Below, piece after piece: positions 8,927 through 25,671 of a stretch of DNA of 60,812 nucleotides (position 1 is its first letter; each line of letters opens with the position of its first letter). The translations under genes were made by a program, and so were the position numbers. The notes under the pieces were generated by a model. The model searched no databases and had not been told where the DNA came from. It worked only from the letters and a program-made list of their open reading frames with translations. Origin of the DNA: a virus (Duplodnaviria; Caudoviricetes). The stretch lies in the IMG/VR virus record IMGVR_UViG_3300008267_000069, positions 1 to 60,812 of that record; one strand, written 5' to 3'.

Positions 8927-10537
8927 TTACCCCCACATCCACTCGCCGCTACGGCTACGGATGCGGCGTTCAACGTCCTGCTGTGCTGCCTCTCGCTGCC
9001 GTGCCTGCTGCGCCAGCAGCACCTTCCGCTCGGAGTCGGGCAGGACTGCGGACACTACCTCAGAGGTCGGGCGGCCCCAACCCAGCTTCTTGCGGAGGGT
9101 GTCCAGCCGCTCCATCAGCGTCCGCACCGCCGGCAGCGGCACCGGCTGCGCCGTGTTCAGCGTGCCGACGGCTTCATGGCACCAGCCCGCATGCTCATGG
9201 ATCCGCACGGCGCTCCACACCCATCTAGGGCTAGGCGCTCCCTTTTTGGTCATCGAGGCCCACTGGTAGAAAGAAAACCGCGCCCAGGCTGTCGGGCTGA
9301 TGTTCTCAGCCTCAAGAGCCTGCGCCGCCTCCAGCAGCGCCGCCCGCTCCTTGGCCGACTGCGCCTTGGCGGGACGCCAGAAGTCCGTTCGCAACACCTT
9401 CTCATGCACGGCCCGATAGGCCGCCTTGAGCAGCGCCAGCCGCTCGTTCTCGCTGTGGGACGCCTCCACCTTCGGAGGGGCAGGCACCCGCAGCACTTGG
9501 ATCTCGTTGGCGAGCTGCGAGGCGGCGCGCATGTCCTCGCTGGTGTACCGCTGCTGCGGCCCCTTGTAGCCACCGCCCAGCGTGATGCACTTGGGGCCAC
9601 CCTCGCCACCCAGCACCGAGAAGAGATCCACCTCCACGCCGTCGGCCCATGCGGAGGCCGGCGCGGGCTGCGCCTCGGGCGCGCTGCGCCTGACCGGAAG
9701 GGCCGGGGCGGGTGCGCTGTCGCTTGGCTGGGTGAAGTTGGGCATGGGTGCCTCCCCTTCGCTGGGTGTGAGGGTGCCGAGAAGGATGGGGAGAGGGTAC
9801 CTCAAGGGATTCTTCCTCTCCTTTCCAGCCCTCTCTGTAGATAAAGAACGCACGCGGAGTGAAACTCCGCATTTCTGATGAAGAGCCGTAGGCTCTTCAG
9901 AAGAAATAAGATCTTGGTACTTATAGGCAGGTATGTTTGATTTTCCGGGGAGACGTTTGATTGCCTGCCGAGGGGCGCTGTCCTTGGCTCCCTTGGGACG
10001 GCCAGCGCCGGGGCGCACGCCGCCCTGACCGGCGGCTTCCTTCACCAGCCGTGCAGTCTCACGCGGCACCAGCGCGTTCTGGGTCTGGCCGTCGGGGGTG
10101 GCCTTGAGGATGCCCAGCACCTTCCGGACGTAGACCTTGTGCATGTGCGGCCCCAGATCGGGATCGCACCGGCAGGGAACCCTGCGGTAGGTGAAGCCCT
10201 TGTCGTCCACCAGCTTGAACTCGCGGAGGCGGGCAAGGCTCTTGCGGACCTGCTCCAGCCCGAGGCCGGTGGCCTTGACCAGCCCAGGAACGGACGGGTG
10301 CGTCTCGCACTCCCCGTTGCGGAGGGTGAGCAGGGTGGCCCACAGCCGAAAGGTGGAGCGGCCCAGCTTCTTCTGGAGCAGGGTGGCCGGGAGGATGGCG
10401 TCGGCCTTCGCTGAGGAAAGGCGCACCTCGCGCTGCTCACGCTCCACGACCTTGGCGATGCCCTCAGTCCGTCGAGGTATCGGGCGGCGCGGGATGATCC
10501 AGCGACCTTGATCATCAGTCAGTTGTAGGGAAGGCAC
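8927..10537 (-). CDS. Putative replication initiator (N-terminal wHTH, AT-hook-like GGVRPGAGRPKG, internal AT-rich ori-like segment)
   Basis: Directly upstream of the helicase; HPSVPGLVKATGL...VRKSLARLREFKLV wHTH; GAGGAG RBS before GTG. Confidence 0.6.
   Translation of the reverse strand: MPSLQLTDDQGRWIIPRRPIPRRTEGIAKVVEREQREVRLSSAKADAILPATLLQKKLGRSTFRLWATLLTLRNGECETHPSVPGLVKATGLGLEQVRKSLARLREFKLVDDKGFTYRRVPCRCDPDLGPHMHKVYVRKVLGILKATPDGQTQNALVPRETARLVKEAAGQGGVRPGAGRPKGAKDSAPRQAIKRLPGKSNIPAYKYQDLISSEEPTALHQKCGVSLRVRSLSTERAGKERKNPLRYPLPILLGTLTPSEGEAPMPNFTQPSDSAPAPALPVRRSAPEAQPAPASAWADGVEVDLFSVLGGEGGPKCITLGGGYKGPQQRYTSEDMRAASQLANEIQVLRVPAPPKVEASHSENERLALLKAAYRAVHEKVLRTDFWRPAKAQSAKERAALLEAAQALEAENISPTAWARFSFYQWASMTKKGAPSPRWVWSAVRIHEHAGWCHEAVGTLNTAQPVPLPAVRTLMERLDTLRKKLGWGRPTSEVVSAVLPDSERKVLLAQQARQREAAQQDVERRIRSRSGEWMWG
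9853..9945. repeat. Structured 93-bp element, copy 1 (inverted copy at 25570-25662); candidate replication origin
   Basis: Near-identical reverse complement of 25570-25662; hairpins GCGGAGT-GAA-ACTCCGC and TGAAGAGCC-GTA-GGCTCTTCA; locally AT-rich. Confidence 0.9.
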
Positions 10538-10548
10538 GCTCTCCTCGA

Positions 10549-10686
10549 TTCACCGGCAGGGCGAACGTGCCCGGAGGCACGCTGGTTGCGCTAGGGGGGT
10601 GATCGGGGAGGGGCGTCACAGGGGAAGCAAGCTAACCCTTTTTCCCTACCCGATAAGCCACCAAGCACGTTCGCCCTGCCGGCGAA
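10549..10686 (-). promoter_or_regulatory. Long hairpin in the 5' leader of the initiator gene
   Basis: Perfect 18-bp inverted repeat CCGGCAGGGCGAACGTGC (10553-10570 / 10665-10682) with nested internal stems, ending just before the RBS. Confidence 0.7.
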
Positions 10687-10827
10687 CCGTGCCTGCTTTC
10701 TTCGTGACCACCATCAATCCCCGCACCCCTGCAAGGCTTGACAGCGTTAGGCTCACTCTAGTGTAGGCACCGACGGAACGCAACCCCGACTTGCGGCGTC
10801 AAGGTTGCGCCCCATCCAGCCTGCGGA

Positions 10828-10998
10828 TCAGTAGCCTCGCAGCAGTCCCTCGATCCGATAGGCCAGCCACTTGATGCTGGCAAATACCAGCCGCACCGCG
10901 CCTCGGATCAGCCAGGCTCCGATCACGCCGAGGCAGACACCGACGGCGATCCGCAGCGAGACTCCCATCCAGAACATCTGCCCATCGATCCCTTCCAT
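10828..10998 (-). CDS. Small membrane protein (56 aa)
   Basis: Hand translation MEGIDGQMFWMGVSLRIAVGVCLGVIGAWLIRG...; GGAGG RBS. Confidence 0.6.
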   Translation of the reverse strand: MEGIDGQMFWMGVSLRIAVGVCLGVIGAWLIRGAVRLVFASIKWLAYRIEGLLRGY

Positions 10999-10999
10999 C

Positions 11000-11188
11000 T
11001 CAGACCTCCTCGCCGCTGGCGATGGCCAGCATGGGGTGACGGGACGGCAGGACGGCAGCAGCGCGCCGCCAAGTCCGTGCCCGCTCCAGAGCCTGCCTCC
11101 ACTCGTAGTCGGCGGTCCCGTAGACCTCTACCCGCCCTGCCACCTTCTTGAAGTCCACCAGAGACACCCTGCCGTTGAACTTGGCCAT
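11000..11188 (-). CDS. Hypothetical protein (62 aa; start re-called at MAKFNG)
   Basis: GGAGG RBS and start-associated hairpin. Confidence 0.65.
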   Translation of the reverse strand: MAKFNGRVSLVDFKKVAGRVEVYGTADYEWRQALERARTWRRAAAVLPSRHPMLAIASGEEV

Positions 11189-11255
11189 AGACGGCCCTCC
11201 CGCGCCCTCAGGCGCATGATCGGTTGTTGATCGAGTACAGACAGGGGGCGGGTCG

Positions 11256-11738
11256 TCAAACGGCGACAGCGGCCCACCAAGTCGGGGCAGGACGCCCCTT
11301 GGCCCACTTGGCGATGCTGGCCTTGGCGCCACGGTAGTAGGCGCGGTACGCCTCGACCGGATCGTCGCACTTGAACTCGTCGGGCATGGCCAGAGCAAAC
11401 GCGGTCAGCCCCGCATTCGGCAACGAGTCAGCAAGCGCGATGACCTGATCGGCGCACCACTGCATGACCGCGCGGCTCTTGTGAATCTTGCCGAATCGAT
11501 GGGTGTACTCGTCAGCCAGCGCCATGCCATGCACCAGCAGCCATGCGTAGTTGGTCAGGCTGGTGCGCGCCCACACCGCGCAGGGGTGGTTGTGGTGGGT
11601 CCGCTTGTAGGGGGCGACACCCTGCGGAAAGGCGCTGCACAACAGCTGCGCCGTTTCCAGCACCATCTTGACGAGGTGCTTGTCGCACTGCATCCGAGCA
11701 GCGGTGACGGGATCACGGTCCAGAACAAAGATGTTCAT
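11256..11738 (-). CDS. Pyrimidine-dimer DNA glycosylase / endonuclease V (T4 denV-like family)
   Basis: MNIFVLD...CDKHLVKMVLETAQLL...YKRTHHNHPC..W...EYTHRFGKIH...VEAYRAYY. Confidence 0.85.
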   Translation of the reverse strand: MNIFVLDRDPVTAARMQCDKHLVKMVLETAQLLCSAFPQGVAPYKRTHHNHPCAVWARTSLTNYAWLLVHGMALADEYTHRFGKIHKSRAVMQWCADQVIALADSLPNAGLTAFALAMPDEFKCDDPVEAYRAYYRGAKASIAKWAKGRPAPTWWAAVAV

Positions 11739-11808
11739 GAGGTTGTCTCCAGCGCCATGAGGCGCATCGGCTAGTTGCAGGTGCTGGTAGCGGCTACCTG
11801 TAAGGTTG

Positions 11809-11837
11809 CTTCTAGGCTATCGGCGTGAACGTGTCAA
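11809..11837 (-). promoter_or_regulatory. Sigma70-like promoter
   Basis: TTGACA-17 nt-TAGAAG upstream of the glycosylase gene. Confidence 0.45.
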
Positions 11838-11841
11838 CAAC

Positions 11842-13497
11842 TTAGATCAGACGACGCTGCGCCTCCTCCTCGGGGTGATAGCCGGGGCAGGCAGGGGGCA
11901 GGTTGTCGGAGGGTGCGCCGCAGACGGTGCAGCTGTAGCCCACCACCTCATGCGCCCTCATCACCTTGCCGCGCCGGGGGTTGCGGAGCTTGTCCACGCC
12001 AGCGAGATCCTGGAGCGCCTGCCGTCGCAGCTCGGCCCGATAGGCAGCCTGCGCTGCGCTGCCCAGCGTGAAGCCATGCCCATCCTTGCGGGGGTCGGGC
12101 TGCTCCACGCCGATCTGGCCCACCTCCAGCACCTCGACCTTGAAGCCCTCCCGCTCGTACACGTCCTTTCGCGCCCGCCCGTGCTTGGCCAAGTAGCGGT
12201 TCCCGTCATCCAACACGTCCCACGCCTCAAAGGTCTTTTTGTCCTTGGTGACACGGGTGGCACGCCCCAGCCGCTGGAGGGTCAGGATCACGCTCTGCCC
12301 GCCGGCAGCGTTGACCACGGAGGCGAGGCTGGGAATGTCCACGCCTTGGGCGAAGACGTTGCTGCACACGATCACGTCCAACTTGCCCTCGACCAAGCCC
12401 TTGATGGCCTGTCGGCGCTCCTCGGTGTCGTCCTCACCCCAGACCAACTCAGGCCGCAGCCCTGCCTTCTTGGCCATCGCCAGCAGCGTCCTGCCTTGAT
12501 TGACCTGGGAGACGAAGACCAGCGCCGGCTTGGCTGCCTGCCGTGCCATCGCCACCACGGCAGCGTTCCGGACCTTGGAGCGGACCACGCACTCGCCATA
12601 GACACCAGGCCACGTTGGGGCGTTGCTGCCCTGCTCCACCCGGACCATCTTGATCGTGGCATCAGCGAGGAAGCCTCGCGCCCTGAGTTCCGCGCTGCTG
12701 GTCTTGTGAATGATCCCTCCGAACTGGCCCAGCACGAACAAACTCTTTCGGTCGCTCCGGTCCAGCGGGGTGGCCGAGATGCCGATCCGGTAGTAGGCGT
12801 TGATGGCCTTGCTGCTGACGAACGAGAAGGTGCCAGCAGCTACGCTGTGGGCCTCGTCGCAGATCATGCCTTGCACGCTGGCCATGTAGGCATAGGCTGC
12901 TCGGTCCTTGGCCTTGCTCATGCGCCGGCTCAAGGTCTGGAATGTGGCCACGGTGATCTGCTGCGGGTTCCAGACGCCGTCTCCGATGATCCCCGGCTCC
13001 ACGCCCAGCCGCTCCCTGATGTGCTTGGCGAACTGCTCCAGCAGGTCGGACTGAGGGACCAGGATCAGCCAGCGGGCATCCGGCACGGAGGCGAGGATCC
13101 CGGCAGCCGCCACGCTCTTGCCTGCTCCTGTGGGCATCTGAATGATTCCGCGAGTCCGAGTGAGCGCAGCCTCCACCGCCTGCACCTGGTAGTCGCGGAG
13201 GTAGGAGAGGTCAGCCTCCACCCTCGGCGGCGGCTTCTGCCTCACGTCCACCAACTCCACCTCGACGGGATCAAGCCGTCCGCTCAGGTGGGTGCGGGTT
13301 GCCCCTGCCTTCTTGACCTTGCCGGCAAAGCCGCTTGGGAACGAATTGTCGATCCGGTTGACCAACTCCACCACGGGGCTGCCGTTGGTGAAGCGGGCCT
13401 GAGGGTCAGCGAAGGTGAGGTACTCGGAGAGCCACTCCATCTCCTCTGGGGTGTACTGGACGACCTTGGCGGTGGCGCAATCGACCTCGATACGCAT
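11842..13497 (-). CDS. SF2 DExH helicase (UvsW-like)
   Basis: LRDYQ, PTGAGKS, CDEAH, SATP, GVDIP, QRLGRATR. Confidence 0.92.
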   Translation of the reverse strand: MRIEVDCATAKVVQYTPEEMEWLSEYLTFADPQARFTNGSPVVELVNRIDNSFPSGFAGKVKKAGATRTHLSGRLDPVEVELVDVRQKPPPRVEADLSYLRDYQVQAVEAALTRTRGIIQMPTGAGKSVAAAGILASVPDARWLILVPQSDLLEQFAKHIRERLGVEPGIIGDGVWNPQQITVATFQTLSRRMSKAKDRAAYAYMASVQGMICDEAHSVAAGTFSFVSSKAINAYYRIGISATPLDRSDRKSLFVLGQFGGIIHKTSSAELRARGFLADATIKMVRVEQGSNAPTWPGVYGECVVRSKVRNAAVVAMARQAAKPALVFVSQVNQGRTLLAMAKKAGLRPELVWGEDDTEERRQAIKGLVEGKLDVIVCSNVFAQGVDIPSLASVVNAAGGQSVILTLQRLGRATRVTKDKKTFEAWDVLDDGNRYLAKHGRARKDVYEREGFKVEVLEVGQIGVEQPDPRKDGHGFTLGSAAQAAYRAELRRQALQDLAGVDKLRNPRRGKVMRAHEVVGYSCTVCGAPSDNLPPACPGYHPEEEAQRRLI

Positions 13498-14066
13498 TAG
13501 AGCATCTCCTTGATCCGGGGATCGGCAGCCATGCGGCGCTTGGCCTGCTTGGTGGCCTCGTAGAGGGCGGTGACAGGAATGCCGGTAGCCTCGGCCACCT
13601 CGGCGCTCTTGGCCTCTCCGGTCAGCACAGCGCGCACAGCCTCACCGTGACGGCCGGCAGCCAGATGCTCGGCCACCAGCAGGGCCAGCACCTGGTCGCG
13701 CTCGGCCTTGTCGAGGGCGTCATCGGCTGACAGCTGATCAGCCGCCACCACGGTCAGAGTCTCATCCGACACGGAGGCAGCACGCATCCGGCCGATCACC
13801 TGAGGAGTTGCGCTGCGCTGGGGGATGTTGGCAGCCACGCTCAGACGCCAGCAGAGGCTCTTCACCGCACGGGAGGCGCAGGGGTAGAGGTAGCCGCCAA
13901 GGTCACCCGCCTCGGGCTGGTAGCGGGGCAGCGCCTCCAGCATGGCGACCCACGCCTCGCTGACGAGGTCGGCGGTATCCAGCCACGGGTGCGTGCGGTG
14001 ATAGCTGCGGGCCACCTGAGTGGCCACGCGGGACAGAACGGCAGATTGCTCAAGGGAGAGGTTCAT
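13497..14066 (-). CDS. Phage sigma70/ECF-like sigma factor (start re-called at MNLSLEQ)
   Basis: Region 2-like DLVSEAWVAMLEALPRY, region 4 HTH SAEVAEATGIP; GGAG RBS plus hairpin. Confidence 0.75.
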   Translation of the reverse strand: MNLSLEQSAVLSRVATQVARSYHRTHPWLDTADLVSEAWVAMLEALPRYQPEAGDLGGYLYPCASRAVKSLCWRLSVAANIPQRSATPQVIGRMRAASVSDETLTVVAADQLSADDALDKAERDQVLALLVAEHLAAGRHGEAVRAVLTGEAKSAEVAEATGIPVTALYEATKQAKRRMAADPRIKEML

Positions 14067-14113
14067 CTTCGACTCCAGCGCCATAAGGCGCATCAAGGGA
14101 ACGGGGCGGGAGA

Positions 14114-14311
14114 CTACTGCTTCTTGTGCTTCTTGCTACGGATCATCTGCCGGCTTTCAGCGAACGCCCACTCAGCGGCGGTCAGCCGGTGCAAGTTGTT
14201 CGCAGCATGAAAGGAGATGTAGCAACTGCGGCAGCAGCCCTCGTTGTAGGGCTGGCGCATCTCTGCACCGCAGGACACACAACCGATCAGTGGAGGGGGC
14301 TTGGCAGGCAT
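14114..14311 (-). CDS. Small Cys-rich protein (CVSC...CRSC)
   Basis: GGAG RBS and start-associated hairpin before the ATG at 14311. Confidence 0.55.
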   Translation of the reverse strand: MPAKPPPLIGCVSCGAEMRQPYNEGCCRSCYISFHAANNLHRLTAAEWAFAESRQMIRSKKHKKQ

Positions 14312-14347
14312 CTCGGACTCCATGCGCCCTGTGGCGCAGCACGGGTT

Positions 14348-14608
14348 TTACAGGACAGCGCGGTGGGCCTCACACAGCAGCGCAGCGGAGGCACTGGTCG
14401 CCAGCGTCCAGCAGTAGACGCCGGCAGAGTTGTAGCCGTGAGCCATCCACCAGCTAGCACCCGGCAGCAGCGGGGAGAGCTTGCGGAAAAGCTCCATCAG
14501 TTCAGCGTGGTCACGGGGGAAAAGACACTGACCAGACTCGCTCGCGGGCATCGGAGCGGAATCACCACCATCAACGATCTTGAGGACAGTGCGCTTGGTG
14601 CGGGCCAT
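14348..14608 (-). CDS. Hypothetical protein
   Basis: AGGAG RBS, hairpin, promoter upstream. Confidence 0.65.
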   Translation of the reverse strand: MARTKRTVLKIVDGGDSAPMPASESGQCLFPRDHAELMELFRKLSPLLPGASWWMAHGYNSAGVYCWTLATSASAALLCEAHRAVL

Positions 14609-14650
14609 CTCAGACTCCTAAGCGCCATGAGGCGCGTCGGTGATGGACGA

Positions 14651-14679
14651 ACACTACTGATGTGGCAGAGAGCCGTCAA
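14651..14679 (-). promoter_or_regulatory. Sigma70-like promoter
   Basis: TTGACG-17 nt-TAGTGT with an A-rich upstream element. Confidence 0.7.
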
Positions 14680-14779
14680 CCTTTTTGTTGTCTATCTTTT
14701 GACCCTTCGCGTCATGCTCAATTTTGTCGGCTGGACCCACGGGCATTTCTCAAAAACAGGGTAAGCCTCCAGCGTCAGC

Positions 14780-15015
14780 GGGGGAAAATTCTGGGGAATT
14801 TTTCTGGGATTTTTCCCAGAAATTGCTGGGAAATTCTCTGGAAAAAGTCTGGGAATTTCTCTGGAAATTCTCCAAGATTTTGTCAGGAAAAGTTGAGGAA
14901 AATTCTGACAGAATTTTTGGGAAATTCTCCCGAAAAAGTCTGGGAATTTCTCTGGAAATTCTCTGGGAATTTTCCCAAAAAAGTCTGGGAAAAAGTCTGG
15001 AGAATTTTTCTGGAG
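14780..15015. repeat. AT-rich degenerate tandem repeat (unit of about 11-12 bp, CTGGGAATTTT/GGAAAAAGT-like)
   Basis: About 20 imperfect units; a ~45-bp segment occurs at about 14828-14872 and again at 14919-14963. Confidence 0.85.
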
Positions 15016-15712
15016 AGAACCTGGCCCGGCCGGCCTCGAAAAAAATGGTACGGACGAGATCGCTATAGCGTGAAAAATAGCCAATTTCACTTCTGCCCGG
15101 CGACCAGGTCGAAACTGGCCGAAAAGTGGGCCGACCTCCAGTAGCGTCCATTGAATATCTGTTGGTTTTTCAACATTCTATTGAATGGCGGCTGTTGAAT
15201 AGCCGTTCCGCTAGCCGGGGGCTGTTAGGTCGGCGGGGCCGGGGAGCGGTCGGGGGGCTGGCGGGCAGAGTAGGGCGGGAGCGGCCTTTCCGGGGCTTTA
15301 GAGCGCCTAACGGAGGGGGTCTAGTGTAGGATGCAGGGGGAGGGAGAGATCGGGGCTTATAGAGGCTTCACGGCCGTCTCTCGTTTCCCGTTGTCCGGTC
15401 GCCGGCCGTCCGGAGGGTGACCGGGTCGCGGTCCTCGCTTGAGGCCGGCTCGCTGCCCGCGCTCGATAGCAGCGACGGCCAGCCGCCTTCCGACGGCGGG
15501 CGCTCCTCTCCTGGTGCGGCCGGTGAGAGGTTAGGCGGGCAAGGCACGGCCAGCCCGCCGCCCGTGAGGCGCGGCAGGGTCTAGACGTGCGACGACGCTG
15601 GCCCGACACCGGAGGAGAGCACCAGGTAAAACACGCCAAGGCGCACGGCCAGCGGCACCGGGGCGGCGCGGCTGGCGGTGAGTCCTAGCAGGCAGAAAAG
15701 GAAGCGCCCCCT

Positions 15713-15859
15713 CTAGCGCCCTAGCCCGGCGTCGGCCTTAGCCGACGCCGCAAGCGCGGCCTTCAGTTCCTCAAGGGTCCAAGGCCGATCATGCACGATT
15801 CCGTGACGGGGACAGACGACCGGCGCAGGCTCGGTCGGGGAGTTAGGACGTTTCGACAT
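15713..15859 (-). CDS. Small hypothetical protein (48 aa, MSKRPNSP...)
   Basis: GAGG RBS plus start-associated hairpin. Confidence 0.5.
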   Translation of the reverse strand: MSKRPNSPTEPAPVVCPRHGIVHDRPWTLEELKAALAASAKADAGLGR

Positions 15860-15961
15860 AGTGAACCTCTAGCGCCATCTGGCGCACACTCGCCGGGGTA
15901 ATCCGGACGCGGCTGCGCCCTTCCGGACAGAATCCGAAAAGGCGCAGCGACGGCGGACTAG

Positions 15962-16276
15962 CTAGCGCCGCACGTCCGCTACCGCTTGACCGTCGATATT
16001 GACCATGCGCCATCGCAAGTCGCCACCCATCTCGACGACCCTGGCAAGCAACGCCGCCGACGCACGCGCACAGTAGACGCCCGACCAGTCCAGTTGCACG
16101 CAGGCTTCCTCCGCACAGCGTGCGGCATCGCTCTCTGCGATTTCCTGGGTGCGGCCAACGCCCCAAATTAAGCCGCCGTCACTGTAGGCGATCCAGCCAG
16201 CGGGCAGCATCTCAGGGGGGAGCGTCTCAGAGTCCAGCGACTCAAGAGCCTTTTGAATGCTCGTATAAAACGGCAT
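15962..16276 (-). CDS. Hypothetical early protein (start re-called at MPFYTS)
   Basis: GAGG RBS plus hairpin; resembles the C-terminal part of 16777-17211. Confidence 0.65.
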   Translation of the reverse strand: MPFYTSIQKALESLDSETLPPEMLPAGWIAYSDGGLIWGVGRTQEIAESDAARCAEEACVQLDWSGVYCARASAALLARVVEMGGDLRWRMVNIDGQAVADVRR

Positions 16277-16315
16277 GGGAACCTCTAGCGCCATCCGGCG
16301 CACCAAAAGGGAAAA

Positions 16316-16540
16316 CTAGCGGCTCTTGCACTCGCAAGCGGAACGGCCAGCGGGGAGACGGCAGAACGTCCGCCACTGCTGCGCCTCCCACCGCTCGTAG
16401 TCGTCGTCTCCCCATCCCTCGCTCACGTCGTCGGAGGGGAGCGGGAAGGGCAACACGTCGCGTCCGGGGCAGGCACGGGGGGCGGCGGCGGCAGGGAGGG
16501 AGAGGGCGAGAGCGGCGAGGGCGAGGACGATGCGGGACAT
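16316..16540 (-). CDS. Small secreted Cys-containing protein
   Basis: Signal peptide MSRIVLALAALALSLPAAAA; GGAG RBS plus hairpin. Confidence 0.65.
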   Translation of the reverse strand: MSRIVLALAALALSLPAAAAPRACPGRDVLPFPLPSDDVSEGWGDDDYERWEAQQWRTFCRLPAGRSACECKSR

Positions 16541-16583
16541 GGGAACTCCGGAGCGCCATGAGGCGCGGTGAGGGTGTGAGTGC

Positions 16584-16612
16584 TTTGTAGACCAGTTGCG
16601 ATGGCGCGTCAA
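16584..16612 (-). promoter_or_regulatory. Sigma70-like promoter with the -35 inside an inverted repeat
   Basis: TTGACG-17 nt-TACAAA; GCGCGTCAA-N10-TTGACGCGC. Confidence 0.55.
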
Positions 16613-16642
16613 CCTTTTCTTTTTGACGCGCTGCGCCGACTG

Positions 16643-16720
16643 CTACAGATAGAGGTGGAGGCCGATGGCAGCAGCGAAGGTGAGGAGGATGCAGATGCCA
16701 GCGAGGTTGTCATTCGTCAT
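16643..16720 (-). CDS. 25-aa hydrophobic peptide MTNDNLAGICILLTFAAAIGLHLYL
   Basis: GGAG RBS plus start-associated hairpin; one TM-length segment. Confidence 0.55.
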   Translation of the reverse strand: MTNDNLAGICILLTFAAAIGLHLYL

Positions 16721-16776
16721 GGGGAGTCTCCAGGTGCGCCTTAGGGCGCGATAGGGTGGCAAGGGGAGAGGGGAGG

Positions 16777-17211: not shown

Positions 17212-17259
17212 GGTCAGTCTCCAGGTGCGCCATCGGGCGCTGTGTTTTGTCTATCGGTT

Positions 17260-17440: not shown

Positions 17441-17483
17441 GGGGAGTCTCCGTTGCGGTGAGAGGGTGAGGGGAGGGAGGCGC

Positions 17484-17732: not shown

Positions 17733-17769
17733 GGGGAGTCTCCGTTGCGAGGGGGTTGTTTCGTCTCTC

Positions 17770-17842
17770 TGCTAGCAGCGTGCCAACCGGCTCAGCCCGT
17801 CGCTCGCACGCTGCCGGATAGCCTTAGCAGTCGGCGTGCCAA
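17770..17842 (-). promoter_or_regulatory. Two tandem sigma54-type (-24/-12) promoters
   Basis: TTGGCACGCTGCTAGCA (17786-17770) and TTGGCACGCCGACTGCT (17842-17826), both with GG-N10-GC spacing. Confidence 0.6.
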
Positions 17843-18794
17843 GCTAGGCAAGCCGCACCAAACAAGCTAGAAAGCAGCGGGAAACAAGGGATAGCGGAGG
17901 CTGGGGCGCTATCTCACCATGGGGGGAGAGGCTGGCAGGAGGCTGCCGAAAAGCGCCAGAACTTTGGCGAAAGCCAAGTTCCTGACGCCAAAAACGCGGC
18001 GTTGACGCCAACTGTCTGACAAGGCGGCAACCTCGCCAGCCCTCGCCACGGCAGTCCGGTGGAGGCTAGTCGAGGCCGCAAGGGATGGCAGCGAGAGGAG
18101 TGGCTAGGGGGGCAGGGCTGGCAGGGAGGGGAACCGCACCTGGTACAGCTAAGGCAAGGCTGGCCGCTCCTCCTGCCCCGTAGTCGAGCCGACGAAAAAA
18201 CCTCCCCTGCTACTAGAGAGGGAAGGAAGGGACAGAGAGAGGAGAGCAGAGAGGGAAGGCTAGGTAGGTACAGGAGAGGAGAGAGGAAGAGAGGGAACGA
18301 GCAAGGGAGTACAGGAGAGAGGGCCGAAAGCGCCAGCCGTGCGCCGCAGGCGCATAGGGCTAGAGGGTAGAGCAGAGAGCCAGCCCGATGAGAGCGAGCC
18401 GCGCAGCGTGGAAGCTAGGGGGCTGGACGGGGGAGTCTGGGGAGAGGGGAGCTAGTCGAGGGGAGAGGGGGATCAAGTCTGGGGGAGGGGAGTAGGTCGC
18501 CAGATCCCTTCCGCATCCTCGCCCACTACATTATGTCAACTGGATCGGACAGGGCCGGGGGGCGCCGCAGCCGGGGGAGGCAGGGCGCACCAGCCTCGCA
18601 TGGGCCAGCCCGCCTCCTCCTCCTCCTCCTCGACTCTCCCTCTCCCTCCTCCTCGACTCTCGCTCCCTCTCTCCTCTAGCTCCTCCACCCAGCACCAGCT
18701 GGGGCGCTAGCTCTCTCCTCATGTACTAGGGCAGGCCGCCCCGCTTTAGGTGCTGGTACCAGGCACCGCCCCAGCGACCCGGCAGGGGGAGGGG

Positions 18795-18850
18795 GCTATT
18801 GAATAGACGCCACTCAATAGATGCCACTGAGTAGCCGCCACTGAGTGGAA
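18795..18850. repeat. Four tandem 14-bp imperfect repeats (GCYAYTSARTRG core)
   Basis: gctattgaatagac / gccactcaatagat / gccactgagtagcc / gccactgagtggaa. Confidence 0.75.
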
Positions 18851-19081
18851 GTGTTCACTCCCCCACAATGTTCACTTTCGACAGGGGGAGGGGCCACCCC
18901 CCCAGGGGGGGGAGGGGGGTTGTGTCTCCCCCCGCCATATATGTGCAGAAAGTTTTAAAATCGACCCTTTAAGGATCCGACTGAAAACAAGGGGTTTTGT
19001 GTGGCGAGTCGGTGGGGTGGTGGGGTGGTGTGCTGGGGAAGTGGTGGAAAGGGGGCAGCGTGGTGTGTAGGGTATAGGGCT

Positions 19082-19840
19082 ATGGGCAAACTGGATGACA
19101 AGAAGTGGCAGAAGTTGGTGATCGCGTTTCGGGAGCAGCCTGGGAACATCAAGAACGCTGCGCGGGTGGCTGTGTGTGATCGGGCCACGGCGAGGCGTGC
19201 TTGGGGGTTGGGGTACCCGGAGATCAAGAGGGAGCCGATTCAGGCTCTCATAGAGAGGGAGACGGAGGCGCGGGAGGCGGCGAAGAGAGAGAAGGAGAAG
19301 GCGATCAAGGAGGAGACGGAGGCGTTTGCGGCGTCGTTGCGGGGTGATGTGAGGGCGCAGGCGTTGGAGGAGTACGAGAGGACGAACCGGTACTTGAGGG
19401 CAGCGTCGGCAACGGCGACCTCGGCCTTGGTGGCGGCGCACAAGATTCAGCCTACGGTGCAGGAGTTGGTGGAGTTGGCTCCCCGGTTGGTGGAGATCGT
19501 GCAGACGGAGATTGATCGGGGGGAAGTGTCAGCGACTCAGGCTGTGGCGATGATGGAGAAGATCGCGTCGATCATGAAGGCGGTGGCGACGACAGCGAAC
19601 AGTGCGACGTTGCAGGGAGCGAAGGTGTTTGAGGTGAGTCGGGCGAGGAGCAGTTCGGATGCCTTGATCAACATCGAGAAGGCAGTGAGCGCGGAGCCGT
19701 TTGATCCTGGTGAGGCCAAGCGGTTGGCGGCTGAGTTGGCAGAGGCAGCTGCGGAGGCCGAGGCTTGGGATCCGAGCAAGCCTACGCTGAACGTGATCAA
19801 GGGAGATGTCGAGGAGATCCCGGCACCCAGCCAAGGCTAG
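19082..19840 (+). CDS. Putative terminase small subunit (start re-called at MGKLDD)
   Basis: N-terminal HTH (NIKNAARVAVCDRATARR), helical body, directly before the large subunit. Confidence 0.6.
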   Translation: MGKLDDKKWQKLVIAFREQPGNIKNAARVAVCDRATARRAWGLGYPEIKREPIQALIERETEAREAAKREKEKAIKEETEAFAASLRGDVRAQALEEYERTNRYLRAASATATSALVAAHKIQPTVQELVELAPRLVEIVQTEIDRGEVSATQAVAMMEKIASIMKAVATTANSATLQGAKVFEVSRARSSSDALINIEKAVSAEPFDPGEAKRLAAELAEAAAEAEAWDPSKPTLNVIKGDVEEIPAPSQG

Positions 19841-19927
19841 GTGGAGAGGGGGGTATGACCCAATCGACCCTCACGGTTTTGGCGTTTTGGCGCGAATAGA
19901 ACCGGCAAAAAATTTAAAAATGGACGT

Positions 19928-21457
19928 GTGGTGATGAACCTGGAGCAGTCGGTGAGCAAACGGCCCAAGAACAAGCTGATCGGGCTGGGAGACATCCCGA
20001 GGCCCAATCCGAATGCGGACAAGCTGGCCATGATGAAGGCCAGCCGCGAGAAGCTGATTGAGTTGGCGCGAACGAATGGGGCTGCGTTCAACGCCATGGT
20101 GCTGAAGGACGAGTTGCTGGGAACTCCGGTGCGGATGGCTCCCATGCATCGTGAGTGGCACCGCTTGGCTGATCGGCACCCGCGCCTCAACATTATTTCT
20201 CATGTAGAGGCTGCAAAAAGTCAGAATCTTTCTGTGGGCCGCATCCTTTTTGAGTTGGGAAAGAACCCCAACACGCGCTGCGTGATCGTGAGCAACACGA
20301 TGATGCAGGCGCAGAAGCTGCTGAAGTCGATTGCCAGCTACATCGAGCGCAGCGAGGAGCTGCATGAGATCTTTCCCAAGCTGAAGCCCAATCCGACGGG
20401 ACCATGGACGCTGACGCAGTTGGCGGTGCAGCGAAAGGGGCATCCCAAGGATCCCTCGGTGCAGTCAACGGGCGTGCATGGGGCCATCACGGGTGCGCGT
20501 ATCGACCTGTTGGTGCTGGACGACATCCTGGACTACGAGAACGCACGGACGCCTGCTGGACGTGAGGACTTGTGGCTCTGGGTGCATTCGGCGCTGTTTG
20601 GTCGATTGACGGAGCATGCGCGAGTGATCTCGGTGGGAAACGCCTACCACCGGGACGACTTCCTGCACCGGATTGAGAAGAACCCTCTGTGGCACACGCG
20701 CCGGTTTCCGGTGCTGACGGAGGAGGGGGAGTCCTCTTGGCCTGAGAGGTGGCCGCTTGAGCGGATCACCATGAAGCGGGAGGAGCTTGGCCCGCTTGAG
20801 TTCGCTCGGCAGATGATGTGCCAGGCACGGGATGACGCGGAGAGCCGGTTCCAGAAAGAGTGGGTTGACCTGTGCATGATGCGGGGCAACGGGCGCAATC
20901 TGGTCAATGCGGTAGCGCAGCCCCCGGCCGGCTGCTCGATCTACACGGGCGTGGACTTGGCGGTGCAGCAGCACTCCAGCGCCGACCTGACGGCCTTTGT
21001 GACCATCCTTGTGTACCCCAACGGTGATCGGGAGATCCTGAACATTGAGACGGGGCGTCTGGCTGGTCCTCAGATCGTTGAGAAGATCAAGGAACTGCAC
21101 CACCGCTACCAGGGCATCTTCTTCGTGGAGAACAACGCAAGCCAGGACTTCATTCTTCAGTTCTTGAGGTCGTCCTCGGCCATTCCGGTCAAGCCGTTCA
21201 CCACGGGCCGAAACAAAGTGCATCCCGAGTTCGGTGTTGAGTCGATTGCGGCTGAGATGGCGGCTGGCAAGTGGGTTATTCCCAATCGCGATGGGCGAAT
21301 GCACAGCGAGGTCGAGGCACTGGTCAACGAGATGTTGTACTACGACCCGAAATCGCATACAGGCGACCGGCTGATGGCGCTGTGGTTTGCGCGAGAAGCC
21401 GCAAGACAAGGTAATATCCGCGCCGAGGTTGGGTACATTCCGACCCTTCGCCGCTAG
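19928..21457 (+). CDS. Terminase large subunit
   Basis: GAITGARIDLLVLDD (Walker B), WPERW, GVDLA nuclease motif, VENNASQ, HTGDRLMA; exact start uncertain. Confidence 0.93.
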   Translation: MVMNLEQSVSKRPKNKLIGLGDIPRPNPNADKLAMMKASREKLIELARTNGAAFNAMVLKDELLGTPVRMAPMHREWHRLADRHPRLNIISHVEAAKSQNLSVGRILFELGKNPNTRCVIVSNTMMQAQKLLKSIASYIERSEELHEIFPKLKPNPTGPWTLTQLAVQRKGHPKDPSVQSTGVHGAITGARIDLLVLDDILDYENARTPAGREDLWLWVHSALFGRLTEHARVISVGNAYHRDDFLHRIEKNPLWHTRRFPVLTEEGESSWPERWPLERITMKREELGPLEFARQMMCQARDDAESRFQKEWVDLCMMRGNGRNLVNAVAQPPAGCSIYTGVDLAVQQHSSADLTAFVTILVYPNGDREILNIETGRLAGPQIVEKIKELHHRYQGIFFVENNASQDFILQFLRSSSAIPVKPFTTGRNKVHPEFGVESIAAEMAAGKWVIPNRDGRMHSEVEALVNEMLYYDPKSHTGDRLMALWFAREAARQGNIRAEVGYIPTLRR

Positions 21458-21465
21458 GAAGTGCT

Positions 21466-21720
21466 GTGACACGCCGATCCAATACCTTCTTTGCAGAGCC
21501 TCCACGGGAGGATGGCCCCTTGCGGTACCCGTGCGACAGGTGCGGGGAGCGGGAGGCGCGTCGGTGGGGCGTGGCCACGGTCATGACAGGAGAGCGCGGG
21601 GGTCGTCAGCAGCGGGTGGGGCTGTGCGATCCCTGCGCTGCCTGCTGCGCGGCTCCTGGGGCTATGTCCTCTTCGCTAGGCGGCACCCATAGCATTGTGG
21701 GCAACGGGAGGAAGGGATGA
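21466..21720 (+). CDS. Small Zn-ribbon protein (CDRC...CDPC)
   Basis: Two CxxC; ATGA overlap with the next gene; start uncertain. Confidence 0.5.
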   Translation: MTRRSNTFFAEPPREDGPLRYPCDRCGEREARRWGVATVMTGERGGRQQRVGLCDPCAACCAAPGAMSSSLGGTHSIVGNGRKG

Positions 21721-21983
21721 CCACGGAAGAGATGGAGCAGGCGCTGGCTCACGACTTGGCGCAGAAGAAACTGCCCAAGGAGACGGAGACGCCTGTGGTG
21801 CTGGCGCGGTTCTGCTTGCAGAACGCAGCCTTGGCGACACGGGGAGCGGAGATGGCCTTGGTGGCGGTCCATCCCCCGGCAGTGGTAGAGGCGCGGCAGG
21901 CGATTCAGTTGGCGCTTTCCAGCTTGGAGCAGGCGCTGGTCCTTTTGGGAACGATGGAGCAGACGAATGAGCAGCGGGACTAG
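21717..21983 (+). CDS. Hypothetical helical protein
   Basis: Overlaps both neighbours. Confidence 0.65.
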   Translation: MTTEEMEQALAHDLAQKKLPKETETPVVLARFCLQNAALATRGAEMALVAVHPPAVVEARQAIQLALSSLEQALVLLGTMEQTNEQRD

Positions 21984-23721
21984 GACTGAGCCGTATGCCG
22001 CAAGGCGTATGCAGACGGCGCTGGCTCCAGAGGTGATGGCCAAGGTGGCCCGCCTCGGGCTGTCGCCTCGTCAGCAGGAGATGAATCGGCTCTGGGCTGC
22101 CTATCGAGGCCAGCAGTACAACGCTCGCAAGGTCGATTGGGATGGGACCGAGAGGACGGGCGGGATCGAGGCCGAGGCTATCGCCTCTGCGGGATTCATT
22201 TCCCCTGGCTTCTACGATGCGGGTGCGACCTTTCCGCTCAAGTTCCGCCGACCGACGACGCCCTATCACCTGCGGAAGGTGATCGTGGACCGTTTTTCGG
22301 GTCTGTTGTTCAGCGACCGAAAGCATCCGGCCATTCGGGTGGAGGGTGACGGGTTGGCCGAGGACTACATCCGGACGCTGGCCGAGGTCAGCCGCTTGTG
22401 GCCTGCCATGATCATGGCGCGGACCTATGGCGGGTCGATGGGATCGACGGCTGTTGGCTTCCAGTTCGTGGATGGAAAGCCGGTGGTTGAGGTGCATGAT
22501 CCCCGCTGGTGCCAGCCGGTGTTTGAGGATCGCCACGCTCTCAGGCTACGCAGCATTGAGAAGCGGTACATGTTTCCGGTGGATGAGCAGGATCCGGAGA
22601 CAGGCTACTGGGTGCAGCGTCCCTACTGGTACAGAAGGATTATTGACGAAGAGCGGGACATCCTCTTCGTGGCTACTCCCGTAACGGAGGAGGAGCCTGA
22701 GTGGGAGGTCGAGCGCGAGGTCGTTCATGGCTTTGGCTTCTGCCCTGTGGTCTGGGTGCAGAACCTGCCGGTGCAGGACGACATTGACGGAGATCCTGAC
22801 TGTCTGGGTGTGGACGACATGTGCGAGCAGATCGACGCACTGCTCTCGCAGGCCAATCAGGGCATTCTGGCGTCCTGTGATCCGACGCTGAAGTTGATCA
22901 CCGACGCCGAGTTGGACAGCATCAAGACCGGCAGCAAGAACGCCCTCAAGCTGCCGCAGGGTTCAACTGCCGACTACATGGAGATCAGCGGCCACGGCAT
23001 CAAGGCTGCGATGGACATGGTCAAGTACCTCCGTGAGATGGTGCTTGAGGTCGCGCAGTGCGTTCTGGATCAGCCTGGTGGCGCTTCCAGCCGACGCACG
23101 GCCACGGAGATTGAGCGCCTCTACGCCTCCATGCTGGCCAAGGCTGACGTGCTGCGCGAGCAGTACGGTGAGCGGTGCATCAAGCCCCTGCTGGAGATGA
23201 TGACCCGCGCCATCCGGATGATCGAGAAGCCCCGCGCTGTGGAGGGCGGCATCGTTCGGCAGTTCGTGAAGCTGCCGCCCCGCATCGTGACTCAGGCTGA
23301 TCTGTCCACCACTCGGGAAGAGCGGCGGCTGCCTCCGGATGAGGGGGCCATGATCAACCTGAACTGGGGGCCGTACTTCAACCCGTCGCTGGATGAGGCG
23401 TTCAAGGCCGTGCAGGCCGCCACCACCGCTCGGCTGGGTGGGCTGCTTGATCATGAGCAGGCGGTTGGCTTTGTGGCCCCCTACTTCCTTGTTGAGGACT
23501 CGCGAGCCATGGCTCGAAAGATCCAGCAGGAAAAGCAGGCGGCAGCCGAAAAGCTGGACGAGGAACTCATGCGGGGGCTGACCAGCCCTGAGTGGGGCGA
23601 GAGCAAGCTGAAGCTCTCCTCCGACGCGGCTGCTCTGATCCCGCCGCTGCCGTCGGATGACGTGGATGCGCCGGCCAAGGTGGCGCACCCGGATGACGTG
23701 CCCGCATCTGAGTTGTCATAA
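21967..23721 (+). CDS. Portal protein
   Basis: 584 aa after the terminase; HGFGFCPVVWVQN, TATEIERLY as in SPP1-type portals. Confidence 0.88.
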   Translation: MSSGTRTEPYAARRMQTALAPEVMAKVARLGLSPRQQEMNRLWAAYRGQQYNARKVDWDGTERTGGIEAEAIASAGFISPGFYDAGATFPLKFRRPTTPYHLRKVIVDRFSGLLFSDRKHPAIRVEGDGLAEDYIRTLAEVSRLWPAMIMARTYGGSMGSTAVGFQFVDGKPVVEVHDPRWCQPVFEDRHALRLRSIEKRYMFPVDEQDPETGYWVQRPYWYRRIIDEERDILFVATPVTEEEPEWEVEREVVHGFGFCPVVWVQNLPVQDDIDGDPDCLGVDDMCEQIDALLSQANQGILASCDPTLKLITDAELDSIKTGSKNALKLPQGSTADYMEISGHGIKAAMDMVKYLREMVLEVAQCVLDQPGGASSRRTATEIERLYASMLAKADVLREQYGERCIKPLLEMMTRAIRMIEKPRAVEGGIVRQFVKLPPRIVTQADLSTTREERRLPPDEGAMINLNWGPYFNPSLDEAFKAVQAATTARLGGLLDHEQAVGFVAPYFLVEDSRAMARKIQQEKQAAAEKLDEELMRGLTSPEWGESKLKLSSDAAALIPPLPSDDVDAPAKVAHPDDVPASELS

Positions 23722-24188
23722 TGTTGCTGGCCATCGACTTCGACAACGTGGTGGTGGACAGCCGCAAGCGGTCCTACGCTGACACCACCACGCCGCTGGA
23801 GTTCATGCCTGGTGCCAAGGAGGGGCTGCGCTCGCTCAAGGCGGCAGGGCATACGCTGCTTCTCTACAGCGCCCGCTCCAATCGCGCTCTGCTCTACACC
23901 TCCGAGTGGGATCCGCTGGTGCGGGCTGGAGTGAAGCGCCCCCATGAGGCGACGTGGGCGCAATCCAAGACGCTGCATTGGGCGCGCTATCGGCAGATGC
24001 TAGACTTTGTGGCAGCTGAGTTGCCCGGCATCTTTGATGCGGTCGATGACGGCTTGCAGGGCAAGCCCTTGGCTGACGTGTTCATTGATGATCGGGCTTT
24101 ATCATTCGGTGACGGCTCGGATCGTATAGGATGGGCGCAGATCGCAAACCTGTACGGCGCGCCCTCCGCACGCGCCGAGGAGTCCTGA
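23721..24188 (+). CDS. HAD-superfamily phosphatase
   Basis: IDFDNVV, YSAR, KPLADVFIDDRA. Confidence 0.85.
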   Translation: MLLAIDFDNVVVDSRKRSYADTTTPLEFMPGAKEGLRSLKAAGHTLLLYSARSNRALLYTSEWDPLVRAGVKRPHEATWAQSKTLHWARYRQMLDFVAAELPGIFDAVDDGLQGKPLADVFIDDRALSFGDGSDRIGWAQIANLYGAPSARAEES

Positions 24189-24649
24189 TGTCTGACGACA
24201 CCAAGTCCAAGATCATCTCCCCCGCCGAGGCTCTGGCCCCCAAGCAGGAGATCCTGCATCGGCAGAAGTTCATGAAGGGGCAGATGACGCCGCAAGAGGC
24301 CCATCGGAAGTGGGGCATCGGCAAGCGATGCAGCGGCTGTGGCGCCCCTGGTGCGATCCGCATTCGGGTGTTCATGCCGGTGGACGAGGCCATGAAGAAG
24401 GCGCCCAACCTCATGGCGCAGATCATGCTGGCTAATCCTGATGGCAGCGGCAAGCTACCGACCATTCGGTTCAAGGAGTCCAAGGGCGACGAGGCGGGCA
24501 AGGACTACATCAAGGCCAGCGACACCGCTTGGTGCAGCCACTGCTCGACGCAGGCCCGTCTGGATGCTGCGCGTGGCGCGCCCAGCTGGGCTGTGGTTGA
24601 GATTGATGAGGGCAAGAAGGACAAGATCCGCGTCGGCTACGGAGACTGA
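24188..24649 (+). CDS. Hypothetical Zn-binding protein (CSGC...CSHC; start at MSDDTK)
   Basis: GAGGAG RBS, TGATG overlap. Confidence 0.7.
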   Translation: MSDDTKSKIISPAEALAPKQEILHRQKFMKGQMTPQEAHRKWGIGKRCSGCGAPGAIRIRVFMPVDEAMKKAPNLMAQIMLANPDGSGKLPTIRFKESKGDEAGKDYIKASDTAWCSHCSTQARLDAARGAPSWAVVEIDEGKKDKIRVGYGD

Positions 24650-24651
24650 CC

Positions 24652-25092
24652 ATGGGTGAGTTGGCAGCCCGCTACATGGCGCACAAGCGCAAGCCTGAAC
24701 CTGACCTCTCACCCAACGAGGCCAAGGCGCTTCAGAAGCTGCAAGCCGAGGCTGCGGCACATGGAGCGTCCTTGCACTCTAAGGGCTATGGCGGGCTGCC
24801 TCCTTCCCTGGTGCTGGGGCTGATGCGGCGAGACGAGTGGCGCTGCAAGCGGTGCGGTGGGCAGGACGACCTGTCCGTTCACCACAAGGCTGGCGTGGTG
24901 TCCTCCAAGTACATCAGCCGCATGGGGCACAAGAACGTGCCGGGCGCACTCGCCGTGATCTGCCATTCCTGCCATGACGCCATTCATGACCAAGCAAGAG
25001 CCGAGGGCATCGACTCCAGCCAGGTCATGCCCGAGGGCGACGTGGCTACTGAGCGAGACAAGGGGCTGCCCGTGGCGCAGCCAGAGACGTAG
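24652..25092 (+). CDS. HNH endonuclease
   Basis: RDEWRCKRCG...VHH...N...ICHSCHDAIH. Confidence 0.85.
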   Translation: MGELAARYMAHKRKPEPDLSPNEAKALQKLQAEAAAHGASLHSKGYGGLPPSLVLGLMRRDEWRCKRCGGQDDLSVHHKAGVVSSKYISRMGHKNVPGALAVICHSCHDAIHDQARAEGIDSSQVMPEGDVATERDKGLPVAQPET

Positions 25093-25103
25093 AGGCACCA
25101 TCC

Positions 25104-25478
25104 ATGGCCATTGATCCCAAGAAGCTGTCTGCCTACTTGTCCACCGTTGAGGCCCGCCCCGGCCGAAAGCCGCTGCCAGTTGTGTCAAGTGAGGAGCGCG
25201 AGAGCAAGGCCGCGCCTGACCTCGACGCCCAGCGTGAACGGCTTGAGCATGGTGCCGACACCACGGACGACCAGTTGAAGCGCCTCCTCTCCGAGAGTGT
25301 GGGCTACATGGAGTTGGACGAGGCTGCCAAGGGCTTCGCGTGCGGCGCTTGTGTCAGCTACGACACCGACGGTGAAGGCTGCGGCAACCCCAAGGTCAAG
25401 GCTCCGGTGAGCGCCCGACATGGCTGCTGCAACCTCTACTGGCCGGCGCATGGAGAACCGGCTTTCCCCGCGAAATAG
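25104..25478 (+). CDS. Protein with a C-terminal HiPIP-like Cys cluster
   Basis: CGACVSY...C...VSARHGCCNLY. Confidence 0.6.
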   Translation: MAIDPKKLSAYLSTVEARPGRKPLPVVSSEERESKAAPDLDAQRERLEHGADTTDDQLKRLLSESVGYMELDEAAKGFACGACVSYDTDGEGCGNPKVKAPVSARHGCCNLYWPAHGEPAFPAK

Positions 25479-25500
25479 CTGGCGTTTTTAGTCTCCAGAA

Positions 25501-25671
25501 AATCAAGTGTCGCTGGTGGCTTTGAGGGCTGGAGTGGACCCTGTGGAGCGATAATCAAGTGTCGCGGGTGAAAATCAAGTGTACCTGCCTATAAGTACCA
25601 AGAACTTATTTCTTCTGAAGAGCCTTACGGCTCTTCATCAGAAAGCGGAGTTTCACTCCGCGACTGATTTT
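25501..25671. repeat. Structured 93-bp element, copy 2 (25570-25662), with three AATCAAGTGT iteron-like repeats
   Basis: Reverse complement of 9853-9945 with a few substitutions and two 1-nt indels; AATCAAGTGT at 25501, 25553 and 25573. Confidence 0.9.

Follow-up and report, generated by a model that had tools for sequence, protein, structure and literature searches.

The window, the whole stretch of DNA analysed here, is a 60,812-nucleotide (nt) phage contig from IMG/VR, derived from an uncultivated freshwater phage, with an estimated completeness of 69%. We show herein that it carries two inverted copies of a structured module 15.6 kb apart, one (copy 1) inside a 536-aa open reading frame (ORF) that resembles a replication initiator gene, and the other (copy 2) in a gap of the head-gene cluster. 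Each copy is composed of AATCAA direct repeats, an AT-rich 17-mer and two adjoining hairpins that are under selection. Our reading, held tentatively and given a little less than an even chance, is that both copies are binding sites for the phage initiator and are built like an iteron-type replication origin. Protein binding, unwinding and replication activity are what we infer from the anatomy of the module, its conservation and covariation, the match of repeat tails between the two copies of a related genome, and the position inside the gene.

Two inverted copies of one module

A BLAST search of the entire record with positions 9840-9965 returned a single other match, at 25570-25662 on the opposite strand, and a repeat-finding run returned the same pair as inverted arms I1 and I2. 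The core of copy 1 (9853-9945) is the reverse complement of that of copy 2 (25570-25662), with 94% identity over 93 nt (E value, 8.8e-35), and in a pairwise alignment the two cores differ by two 1-nt indels and a few substitutions. The near-exact inverted 93-bp pair that an earlier note on this DNA had described is thus borne out. Weaker stretches of similarity can be paired out to 9822-9962 and 25553-25691. Taken as a whole, the module occupies 9822-9962 on the minus strand (copy 1) and 25501-25693 on the plus strand (copy 2), with covariance-model matches at 9822-9958 (128.5 bits) and 25557-25693 (139.5 bits), respectively, both of which were training sequences of the model.

The earlier note had allowed that copy 2 might be a misassembly. 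This is ruled out by contigs of other runs, which run through each copy and into the unique sequence that flanks it. Among them, X3 record 17 spans 8001-10705 (copy 1 and flanks) and X3 record 21 spans 23379-27000 (copy 2 and flanks), each being ~6% diverged from the window, and X2 record 15 spans 25235-25676 with no differences from it.

Repeats, core and hairpins

Read in the direction of the local genes, i.e., on the minus strand for copy 1 and the plus strand for copy 2, the parts of each copy follow one another in the same order: AATCAA direct repeats, the 17-mer GCCTATAAGTACCAAGA, a spacer of ~5 nt, a long hairpin, an abutting GC-rich hairpin, and a loosely conserved tail that ends in GGCTGGA. 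There are, as the earlier note had counted, two AATCAA repeats at copy 1 (starting at 9962 and 9942, minus strand) and three at copy 2 (starting at 25501, 25553 and 25573). Those of copy 1 are the distal 16-nt repeat AATCAAACGTCTCCCC (9947-9962) and the proximal repeat AATCAAACATACCTGC (9927-9942), and those of copy 2 are AATCAAGTGTCGCTGG (25501-25516), AATCAAGTGTCGCGGG (25553-25568) and AATCAAGTGTACCTGC (25573-25588), all on the strand of their copy. The repeat nearest the 17-mer starts 14 nt ahead of it in both copies. In the 60.8 kb the pattern AATCAARYRT occurs five times, and all five occurrences fall within the two copies. No internal dyad was found in the 16-nt repeats, as judged by reading the listed repeat sequences. 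One repeat starting exactly 14 nt before the 17-mer is a constant feature of all 12 elements compared, with zero to two further repeats upstream, and locus L067 (same contig as L003) stops inside an array of at least four.

The 17-mer lies at 9912-9928 (minus strand) in copy 1, where it forms the AT-rich core and encodes AYKYQ in the ORF, and at 25587-25603 (plus strand) in copy 2. The two copies are the fourth and fifth most AT-rich 60-mers of the window, with 37-38% GC versus ~63%. Both hairpins of the earlier note, with arms TGAAGAGCC/GGCTCTTCA and GCGGAGT/ACTCCGC, were found in each copy. Hairpin 1, which in copy 1 extends as TTTCT..TGAAGAGCC-TAC-GGCTCTTCA..AGAAA, spans 9872-9906 (minus strand) there and 25609-25644 (plus strand), again in its extended form, in copy 2; hairpin 2 (GCGGAGT-TTC-ACTCCGC in copy 1) spans 9854-9870 (minus strand) and 25645-25661 (plus strand), respectively. 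A further closure by AAAATCA...TGATTTT, claimed for copy 2, is indeed present there, but it is absent from copy 1 and from the aligned relatives, and we take it to be due to chance.

The sequence that follows AATCAA, the repeat tail, varies from genome to genome. Within the related genome G003 the tails are near-identical between its two copies (AGGTAAGG and AGGTAGGG), and in the window just the last six bases are common to both copies (ACATACCT versus GTGTACCT). The GTGGCATCAC tail is identical in copy 1 of G006 and the copy 2 pair of G001, two contigs whose origin from one phage is not established. These tails point to a putative trans-acting protein that recognizes both sites and co-evolves with them. 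In lambdoid phages, the iteron sequence varies with the type of initiator and the AT-rich side stays conserved.

The motif GGCTGGAGTGG, or its complement CCACTCCAGCC, occurs at 25527-25537, 25685-25695 and 25742-25752, and also beside elements in G001, G002, G003, G006 and L072. With up to two mismatches allowed, GGCTGGAGTGG is mildly enriched over the window (55 observed versus 37 expected).

Conservation among relatives

Portal-based profile searches gave 142 loci; searches for loci by one protein at a time, using the 536-aa ORF or the head gene, had found no relatives. A covariance model built from six sequences was then applied to 86 sources totalling 1.2 Mb, where full-length matches were confined to the window, L066, L070, L072, L074, L075 and L079. 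These six loci are all those that have at least 71% portal identity and reach that far, so that copy 2 is present in six out of six. Every match lies 1.36-1.63 kb past the portal match and upstream of a head-gene homologue. Searches of whole records further revealed that G001 and G002 each have two modules in tandem at the copy 2 site, and that G003 has a second, inverted copy 15.4 kb from the first. The second copy of G003 is inside its homologue of the 536-aa ORF, which stays open, and the order of genes is the same as in the window over the entire inter-copy region, including a sigma factor gene. The window and G003 are the only records long enough to hold both copies. Paired copies and covariation in related phages, which the earlier note had named as a check on its claim, were therefore both found, given the pair in G003 and the compensatory changes kept by the hairpins.

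A degenerate pattern of the module retrieved 15 stretches from IMG/VR, six on known relatives and nine new, and among the latter L157 alone is a true module. This module is situated within the G006 homologue of the initiator (40% identity), whose frame is not interrupted by a stop. The other eight (L154, L155, L156, L158, L162, L163, L165 and L167) were rejected, as they proved on reading to match the pattern without having the hairpins. G004 encodes a distant homologue (31-41% identical in pieces) without a covariance-model match; in its linker, AWTCAAACYGTGGAG is repeated four times with alternating orientation, and there are also an AT-rich stretch and two adjacent hairpins that pair perfectly. 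For distant portal relatives (46-57% identical), 19 loci were read over the 600 nt that lie upstream of the head-gene homologue, and no comparable AT-rich module was seen. A distant blastn search of the GenBank phage collection with 9800-10000 gave no match, an exact 21-mer scan of IMG/VR gave none, and the 185,579 species genomes of GTDB yielded neither a relative of the initiator nor a match to the module pattern.

Selection on the hairpins

Covariation was counted in an alignment of 10 elements fitted to the model. Pairing is retained in 94.7% of hairpin cells (179 of 190 are Watson-Crick, with one G-T and four C-A), both sides have changed in 14 of the 19 pairs, and both hairpins covary. 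None of 500 shuffles reached the observed covariation score, and sliding the partners by 1-3 columns lowers the pairing to 38-52%. The reverse complement folds equally well or better in 11 of 12 elements; because of this, and because wobble pairs are so few, the folded strand is not distinguishable. These results show selection on the hairpins as palindromes or structures, and they fit DNA or RNA on either strand. Since the hairpin sequences differ between the two copies of G003, as well as between the tandem copies in G001 and G002, a structure rather than a site for a sequence-specific dimer appears to be maintained. Rfam searches at both gathering and permissive thresholds returned only noise and no family for the module.

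The copies of the window agree at 85 of 94 positions, as compared with 69 of 95 for those of G003. This higher likeness suggests a recent gene conversion between the copies in the lineage of the window.

Copy 1 within an initiator-like gene

The 536-aa ORF (8927-10537, minus strand) may encode an initiator or a replisome organiser. Its N-terminal domain is HTH_36-like and its C-terminal domain is conserved, and the linker that joins them is encoded by copy 1. The gene for a DnaB-family helicase (7568-8923, minus strand) is directly downstream, and genes for a DnaG-like primase and a family A polymerase also lie downstream. Within the ORF, third-position GC collapses solely at 9760-9970, and the frame is the same on either side. 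Full-length homologues with 45-92% identity read in frame through copy 1 in 14 of 14 cases. The linkers of all 14 contain KSN or KSK (from AAATCAA), an AYKYQ-like motif (from GCCTATAAGTACCAA), and differing peptides each of which spells a palindrome. Because this footprint of conserved motifs and palindromes recurs in every homologue, the constraint acts on the DNA with the frame kept open. The homologues in G003 and G006 also carry the module in frame. By language model, every neighbour of the N-terminal part is an HTH_36 cluster, and some of these clusters also carry DnaD_N or RP-C. Weak leads for the C-terminal part, namely Phg_2220_C, DnaB_2 and T4_Gp59_N (scores of 0.85-0.90, under the reliability bar), all have replication-loading themes.

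An ATG codon with the Shine-Dalgarno sequence GGGGAGG (9743-9757, minus strand) is found in frame 183 nt past the 17-mer of copy 1. At this position, just past the module, seven full C-terminal-only database proteins and one truncated one begin, and G006 has CTG at the homologous place. A nested C-terminal product could be initiated from this site. The C-terminal-only proteins could stem either from genes that are split or from a break of the contigs at the repeat.

Copy 2 in the head-gene cluster

Copy 2 is located in a 386-nt gap that follows the portal gene and four small ORFs. The gap is bounded by the ORF at 25104-25478 and by a head-morphogenesis-like gene (25864-26805, plus strand), whose conserved start is ATG 25864 and not GTG 25774. 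At the copy 2 sites, the conserved head-gene ATG is 274-320 nt beyond the 17-mers.

Farther upstream, the large terminase gene (19928-21457) matches G003 by tblastn in two pieces that are ~960 nt apart (at about 5500-6461 of G003), and an X3 contig has 1171 extra letters at 21138-21143 within the same gene. This suggests an intein, an intron or a homing-endonuclease insertion in relatives that is not in the window.

Other features of the window

The genes between the left end of the window and ~17.7 kb point leftward, and those from 19.0 kb on point rightward. An ECF-type (extracytoplasmic function) sigma factor gene lies between the copies (13497-14096, minus strand); it matches Sigma70_r2 (1.3e-9) and, below the cut-off, TIGR02937 across regions 2-4, and it is 37% identical in G003. 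The most AT-rich spot of the window (14770-15020; 32% GC) consists of ~20 phased 11-nt units, GGAAATTCTCT / TCTGGGAATTT, with 23-nt and 91-nt super-repeats. It lies within a gap of ~1.6 kb between leftward genes, where a filter on third-position GC kept no ORF, and no counterpart was detected by Tandem Repeats Finder in the corresponding part of G003. The array could be an origin, a partition site or an operator array. Three TTGAATA-type repeats occur at 15.15-15.21 kb (15150-15210), and TGAATAGACGCCAC is present three times in tandem at 18800-18844, just upstream of the first rightward gene; both sets may be operators or early promoters of a divergent control region.

The family A DNA polymerase gene (1445-4129, minus strand) carries an N-terminal segment that resembles a uracil-DNA glycosylase (UDG, 2.6e-6). 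A tRNA gene (52745-52817, plus strand; Rfam, 57.9 bits) is found among the late genes. Large late ORFs contain repeated coding units of 38 nt and 88 nt (38378-40965 and 44092-44722), ending in ...AATGGCGGCAC and containing ...GCAACCAGCGG..., respectively, which look like repeat domains of tail-fibre-type proteins.

Discussion

If both copies are sites for the phage initiator, the 536-aa protein, in whose gene copy 1 lies, would use its winged-helix N-terminal domain to bind the repeats. Binding would destabilize the AT-rich core and let the neighbouring DnaB-type helicase load, and the palindromes would extrude as hairpins and so assist in unwinding the DNA, in loading the helicase or in priming. 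The primary origin would be copy 1, whose place in the inter-domain linker of the initiator gene corresponds to that of ori-lambda within O and of SPP1 oriL within gene 38. For copy 2, situated among the head genes, the counterpart would be SPP1 oriR, a proposed fork barrier, and its role that of a further origin or of a site to which the initiator binds strongly. This reading is supported by the iteron-like repeats, the in-frame position in the linker, the variant architecture of G004, the AT-rich core, the selection on the hairpins and the two-site layout of G003. The origin-like anatomy put forward in the earlier note accordingly stands, and is strengthened by the repeats, the linker position, the G003 pair and the SPP1 precedent; the two-origin system that it proposed is a plausible reading, beside that of a promoter plus leader. 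Other two-site iteron replicons, such as P4 with ori and crr, R6K with alpha, gamma and beta, and RSF1010 with oriV and the ssiA and ssiB hairpins, are mechanistic analogies only.

In lambda, the origin ori-lambda is situated in the middle of gene O and is translated as a tolerant linker, and two iterons plus an AT-rich tract suffice for unwinding (PMC7466680, PMC6022878). Copy 1 is similarly placed within the linker of the initiator-like gene, and its iterons adjoin an AT-rich tract. However, its repeats are 16-nt direct repeats without dyad (alternating in G004), whereas lambda has 18-19-bp inverted-repeat iterons and a single origin. In SPP1, oriL is placed within gene 38 and oriR within the late region, each combines direct repeats with an AT-rich unwinding element, and both are bound by gp38 (PMC6316719). 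Bound oriR has been proposed to stall forks, and the two sites are ~13 kb apart (PMC6316719, PMC3485210), compared with 15.6 kb in the window. As in SPP1, one site of the window is in an initiator-like gene beside a DnaB-family helicase gene, and the other, like oriR, is in a non-coding gap of the late head genes near the portal gene (PMC6316719, PMC3485210). The 536-aa ORF has no detected sequence relation to gp38 beyond a sub-threshold HTH_36 match. Moreover, the SPP1 genome is described as transcribed from left to right (PMC6316719), whereas the copies in the window are inverted, because the replication and structural genes diverge. The twin covarying hairpins and the invariant 17-mer are features of the module that fall outside that description of SPP1 (PMC6316719). 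Since the anatomy matches that of ori-lambda and, more closely still, that of SPP1, we favour paired origin-type modules, and the module is best filed under a known class, i.e., an origin inside the initiator gene plus a second site in the late region.

Several points weigh against this reading. The assignment of the 536-aa ORF as an initiator is weak: its N-terminal HTH_36 match scores 19.8 bits, below the Pfam cut-off of 25 (10 of 16 family members match), there is no PHROG or NCBIfam match, a PDB sequence search with the protein gave 0 matches, and Phage_rep_O-type and replisome-organiser (gp38) families gave no match in Pfam, PHROG or NCBIfam, where sub-threshold HTH_36 stood alone. The cumulative GC-skew minimum, at ~12-14 kb, falls on neither copy; with the gene strands switching at 17.7-19.0 kb, the likely terminus that the earlier note had placed between the copies is not upheld either. 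The AT-rich array at 14.77-15.02 kb, for which Tandem Repeats Finder gave no G003 counterpart, is another candidate for the origin. A plain unwinding element leaves the conservation of the 17-mer and the twin hairpins unexplained. Finally, the phage has a gene for an ECF-type sigma factor in the inter-copy region, and each copy points in the direction of the local genes, with start codons 183 nt (copy 1) and 274-320 nt (copy 2) past the 17-mer, an arrangement that fits a promoter too.

A phage-specific promoter followed by a structured leader or short RNA, without origin function, is the alternative that survives best, and we consider it possible but unlikely. An activator or the phage ECF-type sigma factor would read AATCAA plus tail and the TATAAG core, and the transcript would start just downstream and fold into the two hairpins, which could stabilize the RNA, terminate or attenuate transcription, or prevent termination like put RNA. 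Such promoters would fire outward, to the left into the C-terminal domain, helicase, primase and polymerase, and to the right into the head and tail genes. The co-orientation with local genes, which G003 shares, speaks for it, as do the sigma factor, conserved in G003, the Shine-Dalgarno sequence and ATG after the copy 1 core, and the head-gene ATG after the copy 2 cores. In all 12 elements compared, the TATA-containing core and the proximal repeat are separated by a fixed distance, and G004 has TAATAA at about the same distance. On the other hand, a scan for sigma-70 promoters was negative, the -10-like hexamer (TATAAG, TATAGG or TATAGA) never ends in T, and AATCAA precedes this hexamer by 11 nt instead of 16-18. 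Iterons account better for the additional repeats upstream, which number up to at least four and alternate in orientation in G004.

The same ambivalence extends to the hairpins. In a terminator scan of the window, hairpin 2 is flagged on both strands. Its counterpart in L072 is followed by TTCTTTTT, a canonical arrangement that resembles an intrinsic terminator; however, the T-tract after hairpin 2 is missing in G001 and G002, and a terminator within an ORF that is kept open would be odd. HK022 putL and putR are two related copies of ~70 nt with two adjacent stem-loops each, on divergently transcribed arms behind divergent promoters (PMC9378689). The module likewise has two adjacent covarying stem-loops, but Rfam gave no family match, and transcription of the module is hypothetical. 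The put RNA stems have bulges, a triplex and non-canonical pairs, and put sites are without preceding iterons (PMC9378689), whereas the stems of the module are nearly pure Watson-Crick (one G-U in 190 cells) and fold as well or better as the reverse complement in 11 of 12 elements.

A hybrid of the two, i.e., a transcription-primed or transcription-activated origin present twice, appears distinctly improbable. A factor-dependent promoter would give rise to a structured transcript that forms an R-loop or primer, as at T4 oriF and oriG. These origins comprise ~100 bp, in which a factor site lies near -30 and is accompanied by a -10-like motif, and they require the downstream region in cis (PMC3016281). 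The module, with ~100-140 nt and AATCAA at about -29 to -24 relative to TATAAG, has similar proportions. The primary origin of T7 has tandem promoters, which the tandem copies in G001 and G002 recall. Nonetheless, every objection to a promoter holds here as well, and, in place of a tract that melts easily, the module has stable GC-containing hairpins downstream. In T4, the downstream element is rich in A+T and lacks sequence specificity, and R-loop formation is reported to be independent of a specific downstream sequence (PMC3016281), in contrast to the conserved hairpin pair, strongly conserved structure and multiple upstream repeats of the module. A related proposal, of a similarly low probability, is that one sequence does three jobs, as the in-frame linker of the initiator, an iteron origin, and a factor-dependent promoter, with a transcript of two hairpins that would prime replication or render RNA polymerase resistant to termination.

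The remaining alternatives are very improbable. Recombination sites that invert the 15.6-kb segment, as the earlier note had suggested, would accord with inverted 93-nt arms of 94% identity and with copies that are more alike than those of G003, as if by gene conversion, but a crossover in the core would cut the 536-aa ORF in two, separating N- and C-terminal halves that all 14 homologues keep joined; orientation and gene order are the same in G003, no recombinase was found in the part of the ORFs scanned in 0-27 kb, and no strand change at the copies was seen among the 15 contig joints listed out of 43, although contigs are poor evidence and a rare inversion could escape them. That the module is without function for the phage, as a repeat that is neutral or selfish (e.g., a miniature mobile element or recently duplicated DNA), is just as hard to credit: the core is nearly identical between the window copies, assemblies tend to break at the module (L067), and the eight C-terminal-only protein calls, one of them truncated, begin just after it, but the module occupies the same two positions in diverged genomes, is in frame in homologues down to 45% identity, keeps both hairpins by compensatory changes, lacks terminal inverted repeats or a target-site duplication conserved across relatives, and is absent from the GTDB genomes and the GenBank phage collection.

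Origins of uncultivated phages are almost never located, and the paired module provides a concrete candidate for an origin pair in a widespread lineage of freshwater phages. It suggests that the SPP1-style layout, with one site in the initiator gene and another in the late region, is not peculiar to one Bacillus phage. Within the ORF, which offers a clear natural example, selection at the level of DNA overrides the protein sequence, as the linker peptide is wholly different (SSEEPTALHQK versus SQKNLKVLLRN) with the palindrome retained. Moreover, the genome-specific repeat tails may offer a handle on initiator-DNA recognition from sequence alone. If the module did perform all three jobs, the copy in the head genes would let one initiator-bound element start replication and late transcription together.

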